A DNA stretch of 45,199 nt from Pseudomonas phage Flu_PA14_4. Position numbers and translations under genes: made by a program. Positions 30,983 through 31,380 of this stretch are shown here, piece after piece (position 1 is the first letter of the stretch; each line of letters begins with the position of its first letter). The DNA is taken from sequence record PQ287279.1. One strand, written 5' to 3'. Under the pieces are notes generated by a model. The model saw nothing but the letters and a program-made list of their open reading frames with translations. It was not told the DNA's origin and did not search any database.

Positions 30983-31041
30983 GTCTCACCTCGCGTTCGC
31001 GTGCATGCGGCAGCGTTCCGAATCGCTGTCGTCATACAGGC

Positions 31042-31066
31042 GAAAAAATGCCCGGACTTGCCGGGC
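31042..31066 (-). terminator. Intrinsic terminator inside the leftward early operon
   Basis: Minus-strand hairpin GCCCGG-CAAGT-CCGGGC followed by ATTTTTTCG. Confidence 0.65.
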
Positions 31067-31380
31067 TAATGAGGGGTATGGGGATAGAGGGTGATCTGCG
31101 CTGCCGGCTCTACTTGAGCTACCTCCACCCTCCACGGGTGGTGCGCTAAGCATCAGCACTACTACTACGTCAGCGGCGTGCACACCGCTTATGCCTCGTT
31201 CGTGCCTACGCAATCCTTCACGCCCCGCCGGGCCGTTTACGGATTCACAGATGCGCTACAGCAGCGCAGATCACTCTCATTGGTAGGGTGGGGATGGCTC
31301 TAGTCTCCAGGCTTACGCGAACGCGCCCCGGTGCGCACTAGAGTCATCCCCATTAAAGGGTGGCGTCCTTGCCGGGGAAG

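Follow-up and report, generated by a model that had tools for sequence, protein, structure and literature searches.

A composite locus of predicted structured RNAs in the early-left operon of Pseudomonas phage Flu_PA14_4 and its relatives

Background

The tRNA cluster of phage T4 contains two stable RNAs, species 1 and species 2 (rnaC/rnaD), to which no function has been assigned. They are arranged in tandem with tRNAs in one transcript, are matured by processing, and have no promoter or terminator of their own. The c4 RNAs of phages P1 and P7 and the CI RNA of P4 (Rfam C4) are small structured antisense RNAs, which RNase P cuts from a phage operon transcript. ROOL and GOLLD, both of 500-800 nt and both present in Rfam, are found in phage and prophage genomes, often with tRNAs as neighbors; they show strong covariation and have no linked protein gene and no assigned function. 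At lambda sib and at the RNase III sites of T7, long double-stranded helices are located in early polycistronic transcripts with a terminator adjacent, and these helices are simple irregular hairpins. A catalogue of structured RNAs drawn from IMG/VR, based on covariation in viral intergenic regions, lists 8,495 unnamed candidates with no assigned function, and its main text does not mention Pseudomonas (PMC10690425). Only rarely does comparative evidence give solid support to a phage non-coding RNA that has no assigned function, and few such RNAs are found in hosts that are easily manipulated.

The window analyzed here is a stretch of 45,199 nucleotides from Pseudomonas phage Flu_PA14_4 (sequence record PQ287279.1). 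A first-pass annotation, made from the letters and open reading frames alone, had described positions 30983-31380 as a highly structured island without an ORF of meaningful size, and had proposed a small RNA, an antitermination-type RNA or a protein-binding regulatory site that splits the leftward operon into two units. Comparison with related phages indicates that the island truly is a region of structured non-coding RNA, on the strand of the operon, and that its helices are conserved and covary.

Results

Location and composition of the island

The 551 bases around the island are 100% identical to positions 34678-35228 of Pseudomonas phage vB_PaeP_Tr60_Ab31, and the same stretch is near-identical in the phages YA3, HB2107-3I, MPK9, PAShipCat1 and P27. 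In Ab31, the counterpart of the island is a gap of 398 bp between ORF45 and ORF46, two genes of the minus strand. According to the Ab31 annotation, the gap lies inside a leftward early operon that leads from the repressor region through the Bet, Exo and SSB genes to the integrase. The stop codon of the DUF7448 gene directly adjoins the island on its upstream side, and the product of the gene on the downstream side had no match in a Pfam search. A total of 58 phage records match parts of the region, the majority of them only at its two ends. In an alignment of seven phages, the order on the minus strand is linker, module 1, the motif CCCUACC, element X (in some phages only), a C-rich tail, a terminator and a leader (Table 1). 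Taken as a whole, the gap forms a composite locus of non-coding RNA on the minus strand, within the early-left operon.

Table 1. Features of the island and its flanking genes, in the order of transcription (positions of the window)
Feature	Position	Strand	Basis
Upstream gene, Ab31 ORF46 equivalent, DUF7448 protein	31381..31758	-	ORF list; Pfam DUF7448, E = 1e-26; Ab31 annotation
Conserved 5' linker CUUCCCCGGCAAGGACGCCACCCUUUAA	31353..31380	-	7-phage alignment; flank listing
Module 1, 64-nt hairpin (second inverted pair)	31289..31352	-	Repeat search; folds of 7 variants; variant list
Linker CCCUACCAAU between module 1 and X	31279..31288	-	Alignment; flank listing
Element X, predicted 192-nt structured RNA	31087..31278	-	First repeat pair; MFE folds; RNAalifold consensus; covariance-model match; pair counts
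P1, closing helix of X	31259-31278 with 31087-31106	-	Fold coordinates
P2 of X	31253-31256 with 31143-31146	-	Fold coordinates
P3 and P3b of X	31212-31245	-	Fold coordinates
P4 arm of X	31150-31211; distal hairpin 31172-31189	-	Fold coordinates
P5 hairpin of X	31125-31141	-	Fold coordinates
P6 hairpin of X	31107-31119	-	Fold coordinates
C-rich single-stranded tail UAUCCCCAUACCCCUCAUUA	31067..31086	-	Flank listings
Intrinsic terminator, GCCCGG-CAAGU-CCGGGC then AUUUUUU	31040..31066	-	Terminator scan
Conserved leader of downstream gene	30983..31039	-	Invariant columns, 7-phage alignment
Leader hairpin CAGCG-N8-CGCUG	31011-31028	-	Sequence
Shine-Dalgarno GAGGUGA	30986-30992	-	Sequence
Downstream gene, Ab31 ORF45 equivalent, 146-aa cysteine-rich protein	30542..30982	-	ORF list; Ab31 annotation

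Both of the inverted pairs given in the first-pass annotation were recovered by a repeat search. The first has arms of 18 nt (31087-31104 and 31261-31278) that are 94% complementary and lie 156 nt apart; the arms of the second have 16 nt (31289-31304 and 31337-31352), are also 94% complementary, and enclose a spacer of 32 nt. The picture of one structured island needs revision in this respect, because each of the two pairs, although real, closes a module of its own. The short GC hairpin CCACCC-TCCAC-GGGTGG, noted in the same annotation, is present at 31125-31141. Folding, which had been suggested as a check, sets the region apart from its shuffled versions: the minus-strand RNA of 31035-31385 reaches -156.1 kcal/mol, against -131.4 +/- 5.7 kcal/mol after shuffling (z = -4.3; 0 of 100 shuffles were as good). 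The fold of the plus strand in the same region is weaker (z = -2.1).

Structure and covariation of element X

Members of the X family were searched for by pattern scans of IMG/VR, of the GTDB representative genomes and of JGI metagenomes, with nhmmer and a covariance model as the filter. In this way, 24 distinct full-length members belonging to several sequence lineages were found. The filter rejected a series of chance pattern-scan matches (L015, L033, L035-37, L039, L042-46, L048-49 and L060).

In the alignment of the 24 members, 28 of 55 pairs have changed on both sides and 98.5% of the pair positions are paired, a percentage that is somewhat inflated, as this alignment was fitted to the model structure. 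None of 500 shuffles reached the observed values, a control that overstates the significance since the 24 sequences are related. The diversity of the set is modest. When the partners were slid by 1-3 columns, pairing fell to 33-39%. RNAalifold detected compensatory changes in 31 of 56 pairs of the 24-member alignment. An independent MAFFT alignment of 15 sequences, also analyzed with RNAalifold, produced the same helices with 55 pairs, 9 of which showed compensatory changes and almost none of which was broken. A brute-force search for covarying unpaired columns, as expected of pseudoknots, gave a signal dominated by phylogenetic correlation.

The covariance model matches the window at 31077-31290 on the minus strand with 235 bits, compared with 34 bits on the plus strand; this is the single match, so the window holds one copy of X. 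The difference in score and the better fold both place X on the minus strand. The same strand is indicated by the recurrent G-U pairs of X, for example in columns 31/198, 59/71 and 88/147, which on the opposite strand would become A-C mismatches. The inverted repeats are conserved in related phages, and their arms carry compensatory changes, so that the island passes the refuting condition set in the first-pass annotation, a lack of such conservation. A double-stranded protein-binding site in the DNA, one of the readings first suggested, does not agree with these data: helices that change in sequence while their pairing is kept, together with strand-specific G-U pairs, point to an RNA helix and not to a DNA operator. 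On the comparative evidence, X is very probably a real, conserved structured RNA of the minus strand.

In the model, X is a four-way junction closed by a helix of 19-29 bp, which is formed by the first inverted pair. This length of P1 was observed in each member examined, with 19 pairs and 1 interruption in the window and up to approximately 29 pairs in others, and it is in the range expected of RNase III substrates (about two turns, at least 20 bp of nearly uninterrupted double-stranded RNA). The junction and loop sequences GGGUUGCGUAGG, GAGGCUUAGC and UGGAGGU are near-invariant while the helices covary. In L034, a divergent metagenomic phage, the sequence of P1 is entirely different and pairing is kept at about 20 bp; a stem resembling that of module 1 and a terminator are again present.

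Comparison of X with known RNA families

When the whole window was scanned with Rfam 15 at the gathering threshold, no family matched the island. With the threshold relaxed to E <= 10 for 30900-31450, the best hits were chance matches to miRNAs and sRNAs below 20 bits, and at E <= 0.5-1 nothing was found in six relatives and four divergent loci except a tRNA fragment in PAE2. ARAGORN identified no tRNA or tmRNA in the island, the sole tRNA of the window being tRNA-Ser at 20864-20950, and no tRNA in six relatives. Plasmids and E. coli genomes, searched with BLAST, contained no match to X. X is not mentioned in the genome papers of Ab31 and YA3, and no description of it was found in the literature on Pseudomonas prophage sRNAs, phage CsrA partners and phage structured RNAs. 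These comparisons identify X as a predicted RNA family that has not been filed before, well supported and narrow in its known distribution.

Several other identities were considered and rejected. Inverted repeats are a feature of retron msr-msd RNA, but no reverse transcriptase is annotated in Ab31, no neighboring gene is constant, and Rfam gave no match of the retron type. CRISPR repeats (as in RNA anti-CRISPRs), the 3' end of 16S rRNA, the L11-binding region of 23S rRNA, T-box, 6S and Y RNAs were compared by inspection only, and the resemblances were short motifs that are not conserved across the family.

Distribution and genomic contexts of X

Element X is present in some close relatives and missing from others. 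In LC3I3, module 1 and the flanks are as in the window and X is cleanly absent, the junction showing the short direct repeat AUCCCCA..UACC. JBD44 and PAJU2 are also without X, and both LC3I3 and JBD44 keep module 1 and the terminator. In BUCT566, PAE2 and IME307, X is present next to module 1 interiors that differ from that of the window. The existence of close relatives without X means that it is dispensable in nature.

Besides the Ab31-type context, X was found in at least three others: after a csrA gene of the rsmM type or after other genes; behind two small covarying hairpins, a context that includes the genome of Pseudomonas huaxiensis; and in L034. An exact 21-mer search of the GTDB representative genomes gave one match only, in the same Pseudomonas huaxiensis. 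Members of the family came only from records of Pseudomonas phages, a single Pseudomonas genome, and host-unassigned contigs of IMG/VR and metagenomes. Among 25 loci, no gene family was common to all within +/-8 kb of X, the maximum being 10 of 25. The commonest neighbors are a cI-like repressor gene upstream (2-6 kb from X in 9 loci) and recombination genes downstream, which places X in early-left operons. Only 4 loci have an rsmM-type csrA gene (Pfam CsrA, E = 1e-24) as the immediate upstream neighbor. X is not tied to any one neighboring gene.

Exchange of module 1

The locus begins with a conserved linker of about 45 nt, which in the seven-phage alignment directly follows the stop codon of whichever gene is upstream; its sequence CUUCCCCGGCAAGGACGCCACCCUUUAA is common to phages with different upstream genes. 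In module 1, the closing stem UGGGGAUG/CAUCCCCA is constant in related phages, and the interior is swapped for unrelated sequences of 50-130 nt. At least six interior types were distinguished: window/LC3I3; BUCT566/IME307/PAJU2/L020; L008; L014; JBD44/PAE2; and L034. The stem of L034, GAUGGAUG/CAUCCAUC, belongs to a folded closing helix of more than 20 bp, and judging from its sequence we read it as a compensatory version of the Pseudomonas module 1 stem. The motif CCCUACC returns after each module in related phages.

Folds of seven variants show that several module 1 types adopt a three- or four-armed, tRNA-like cloverleaf, in which a hairpin of 5-6 bp abuts the 3' strand of the closing stem. 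ACC comes after the module 1 stem, as in a tRNA minihelix. The same seven folds contain no T-loop sequences, and module 1 was not called a tRNA by ARAGORN or Rfam. In PAE2, a decayed tRNA whose anticodon loop resembles that of Lys-CUU (29.9 bits with the Rfam tRNA model; ARAGORN negative) is located between a JBD44-type module 1 and X. Given the interior swaps, the tRNA-like folds and this decayed tRNA, the module 1 slot is a site at which small structured RNAs are exchanged.

Tail, terminator, leader and promoter

Upstream of the terminator, the motif CCCCUC(A)UU of the tail is conserved in several contexts. The terminator itself, which the first-pass annotation had placed on the minus strand, consists of a stem-loop at 31050-31066 with a 6-bp stem of G-C pairs only and a 5-nt loop, followed by the U tract (ATTTTTT in the DNA); two terminators were detected in the region, where 2.1 would be expected by chance. 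It is nearly invariant in the aligned Ab31/PAJU2-type relatives with the exception of PAJU2 itself, where a different terminator occupies the aligned position, nearer the leader, and an Ab31-like one lies further upstream. Analogous terminators follow X in L019, L034 and L040. A terminator is adjacent to X in the Ab31-type context, in the csrA-linked context, in L034 and in L040; none follows X in L058 and L030, so a unit of X plus terminator is not universal. As a conserved intrinsic terminator after the island, it can divide the leftward operon, as had been proposed.

The conserved leader extends over about 70 nt and carries the Shine-Dalgarno sequence of whichever gene lies downstream. Scans for sigma-70-type promoters adjoining X in four contexts predicted none. 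Of the small-RNA reading, the structured RNA is upheld by its conserved, covarying helices; a free-standing sRNA gene, for which a promoter of its own would be expected, is less likely than a module processed from the operon transcript.

Discussion

A structured RNA acting on its own or a signal for its neighbors

The best explanation of these observations, to which we give an even chance as a whole, is a composite RNA locus in which X is co-transcribed with the operon, released, and acts in trans. RNA polymerase from the leftward early promoter would transcribe through the island, and a fraction of the transcripts would end at the terminator. The long perfect helices may serve as processing or protective stems resembling RNase III substrates, and the minihelix-like module 1 with its ACC may be a cleavage site of RNase P. 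X would thereby be released, or left as a stable 3' domain, and could act through its conserved junction and loops on a protein or RNA of the host or phage during early lytic development. Excision of X from the early-operon transcript at the long helix is probable; the specific route through RNase III and RNase P is offered tentatively, as a possibility on the weaker side. In our judgment, the chances are about even that X functions as an RNA in its own right, as opposed to serving its neighbors as a cis signal. This reading is preferred because a processing site would not need an interior of 140 nt that is conserved and covaries, and because the neighbors of X differ between phages.

The main rival, which we hold to be unlikely but worth keeping in view, is that X is purely cis-acting punctuation of the operon. 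Here the long helix would be an RNase III site that, with the terminator, sets stability or expression upstream versus downstream, comparable to retroregulation by lambda sib or to the intergenic RNase III sites of T7, and X would have no function in trans. Such a role would suit a helix of 19-29 bp standing directly upstream of a conserved terminator and leader inside a polycistronic early operon, and it would require no promoter for X, in line with the scans. For this purpose, however, the helix alone would do, whereas X keeps an interior of about 140 nt with four covarying helices and near-invariant junctions, even where P1 has changed completely. X also has many different neighbors and sometimes no terminator.

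A bolder version of the trans-acting reading is quite unlikely in our estimate: X would be a new class of trans-acting phage RNA, excised at the long helix, that neutralizes or redirects a host factor by means of its four-way junction, and the slot would be an exchangeable, RNA-only accessory or counter-defense locus of Pseudomonas temperate phages. Candidate targets in that case would be a defense nuclease, an RNA-binding regulator, the ribosome (via the invariant GGAGGU) or a signaling nucleotide. In relatives, the slot of X holds tRNA-like modules and a decayed tRNA-Lys-like gene.

Other explanations

Sponges of the RsmY/RsmZ type carry many exposed GGA motifs. It is very unlikely that X is in the same manner a partner or sponge for a protein of the CsrA/Rsm family, either the host RsmA/RsmN or the phage RsmM. 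The idea draws on the four loci with an rsmM-type csrA gene directly upstream, on the invariant UGGAGGU, and on a GGA in the P5 loop of many members; rsmM alleles have been described from phages of P. aeruginosa (PMC7366521). Against this, the invariant GGA is a single one, the variants adjacent to rsmM have no GGA in that loop (CAGAG instead), and neither the window nor most X loci contain a csrA gene.

Mobile DNA of a MITE-like kind, or a recombination cassette, with terminal inverted repeats and an incidental RNA fold, is an explanation of remote likelihood. It would account for the presence and absence of X between identical flanks in the window and LC3I3, for the terminal inverted repeats of 18-29 bp, and for the direct repeats of 8-14 nt (ACCCUACC, AUCCCCA..UACC) that flank X in Ab31-type phages. 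In other contexts, those direct repeats are absent. Each genome has one copy (a single model match in the window) with no transposase nearby, and the terminal repeats covary, to the extent of being fully different in L034, so that no binding sequence is kept. The asymmetric interior helices, which covary and contain strand-specific G-U pairs, also speak for an RNA.

A processive antitermination RNA similar to HK022 put, allowing read-through of the following terminator, is most improbable. RNAs of the put type form paired stem-loops close to the promoter and act in cis, making the polymerase resistant to terminators. X does lie immediately upstream of a terminator in several contexts, and a homologue of N was not found in the related phage YA3 (PMC7326022). 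Terminator and downstream genes are nevertheless the same in the relatives that have no X, and the put/nut-type role first suggested for the island thus finds no support, X being optional where the terminator is kept. X is also kilobases from the early promoter, with the repressor gene 2-6 kb upstream in 9 loci, has no similarity to a known element in Rfam, and occurs without a following terminator.

We attach very little likelihood to module 1 being an antisense RNA of the c4/CI type, cut from the operon transcript and pairing through its variable loop with the ribosome-binding region downstream. In the window, and only there, the module 1 loop CGCGUUCGCGU (31315-31325) is complementary at 11 of 11 positions to 30992-31002, just 5' of the ORF45 Shine-Dalgarno, and the combination of a constant scaffold with a changing interior is reminiscent of P1/P7 c4. 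But both 11-mers are near-palindromes, and the target leader is invariant while the module 1 interiors are unrelated to each other. For the other interiors against their own leaders, duplex energies were no better than those of shuffled sequences (z from -2.6 to +1.4), and the Rfam C4 model had no match.

That the region encodes small proteins is scarcely credible: hypothetical CDSs are annotated across X in the GenBank records of BUCT566, IME307, P27 and PAShipCat1 and mechanical ORFs of 31-75 aa exist, which qualifies the original statement that no ORF of meaningful size is present, but no ORF is conserved across the variants, close variants differ by indels of 1-2 nt, and substitutions fall in base-paired couples and not in third codon positions.

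Significance of the locus

X is carried by phages that grow on P. aeruginosa PA14 (Ab31, YA3, MPK9, BUCT566), and natural relatives with the same flanks but without X, such as LC3I3, can be used as controls. Genes for host takeover and anti-defense are typically located in the early-left accessory region of temperate phages, which is also the place of X, and the slot of X is shared by tRNA-like modules that can be exchanged. If X acts in trans, an RNA-only module would be added to the host-takeover and anti-defense repertoire; if it acts in cis only, it would represent an unusually elaborate way of punctuating a phage operon at the RNA level. The proteins annotated across X in several GenBank records are spurious, and the element merits an RNA family entry.

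Relationship to known phage RNAs

X is a member of none of the groups formed by the stable RNAs of the T4 cluster, the ROOL/GOLLD-type RNAs, lambda sib and the T7 RNase III sites. It is similar to T4 species 1 and 2 in that its relatives hold tRNA-like cloverleaves and, in PAE2, a decayed tRNA in the same slot. This similarity is one of arrangement; X is closed by a much longer helix, is optional, and belongs to a temperate lambdoid Pseudomonas phage. ROOL and GOLLD share with X their phage setting, a place next to tRNAs, the strong covariation, and the lack of a linked protein gene and of an assigned function, but they are longer than X, which has about 190 nt and no Rfam model. Like lambda sib and the RNase III sites of T7, X combines a long double-stranded helix in an early polycistronic transcript with an adjacent terminator, a layout in which RNase III could cut and alter the fate of the mRNA, cleavage of X being only putative; to such simple hairpins X adds a conserved four-way junction of 140 nt. 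The layout of module 1, with its conserved scaffold and variable loops, is like that of P1/P7 c4 and P4 CI, although module 1 shows neither a match to the C4 model nor a general complementarity between loop and target. The data source and the kind of evidence behind the IMG/VR catalogue are those used here for X, which may be one of its 8,495 unnamed candidates (PMC10690425). We rate X as a phage-encoded structured RNA in a tRNA-like RNA array; this kind of element is known, and X itself is a new variant of it.

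Possible additional RNA modules around the conserved structured RNA

Some islands that carry X, the 192-nt conserved structured RNA, share further non-coding sequence. A block with the sequence GCGGACGAAA.CUGCGGCCUAUAACCGCCCACCUGC... is common to loci L051 and L059, where it lies downstream of X, and L056, where it lies upstream. Because this block flanks X on either side, depending on the prophage, extra RNA modules are suggested for these islands. In one context (L030, L032, L052, L054 and L058), two small conserved hairpins are located about 60 nt upstream of X, and a compensatory change is seen in one of the two (ACGUCAG/CUGACGU versus ACGACAG/CUGUCGU). 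Upstream in this same context, the segment CCCGAUGC duplicates the outer 3' strand of P1, the long helix closing X; such a copy would allow an alternative pairing.

In the window, the apical loop of module 1, the 64-nt hairpin upstream of X (CGCGUUCGCGU on the RNA; 31315-31325), is complementary at 11 of 11 positions to 30992-31002, directly 5' of the Shine-Dalgarno sequence of the downstream gene. Loop-leader complementarity of this kind was not found in other module-1 types. Between X and the terminator, the window (31067-31086, minus strand) has a C-rich tail containing the motif CCCCUC(A)UU. Such a tail also stands ahead of the terminator after X in L019, L034 and L040 and is common to several contexts that otherwise differ. 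The invariant GGAGG of X would be a possible pairing partner for it.

Hypothetical proteins have been annotated across X in two loci (see table) and likewise in the GenBank records of P27 and PAShipCat1. Since X shows covariation and frame-breaking indels, these coding sequences are probably spurious.

Neighboring genes and tRNA-like sequences

In four prophage loci (L019, L016, L022 and L026), X is preceded, about 170 nt upstream, by an rsmM-type gene of the CsrA family; the window lacks a csrA homologue. A 440-aa ORF with the same orientation in the operon, situated about 1 kb upstream of the island, consists mostly of about 30 tandem SAASNTG(D/N/Y)(R/Q/Y) repeats.

Coordinates and basis of annotated features
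Feature	Location	Strand	Basis
440-aa repeat-rich ORF	window 32413-33735	-	ORF list
rsmM-type CsrA-family gene, 122 aa	L019 9750-10115	+	Pfam CsrA, E = 1e-24
tRNA-Ser, anticodon CGA, full-length	window 20864-20950	+	ARAGORN
Decayed tRNA-like sequence, anticodon loop CCCUUAA	L003 (phage PAE2) 1522-1578	-	Rfam tRNA model, 29.9 bits
Hypothetical protein CDS over X	L002 1271-1651	+	GenBank annotation
Hypothetical protein CDS over X	L005 1337-1450	-	GenBank annotation

The decayed tRNA of phage PAE2 is flanked by X and a module 1 of the type found in phage JBD44. Its anticodon loop is Lys-CUU-like with position 33 altered, and ARAGORN made no call there despite the Rfam score. The full-length tRNA-Ser of the window adjoins the integrase region; in the papers on the close relatives Ab31 and YA3, the description is limited to a 64-bp attP stretch identical to the 3' portion of the host's tRNA-Ser gene (PMC3974807, PMC7326022).
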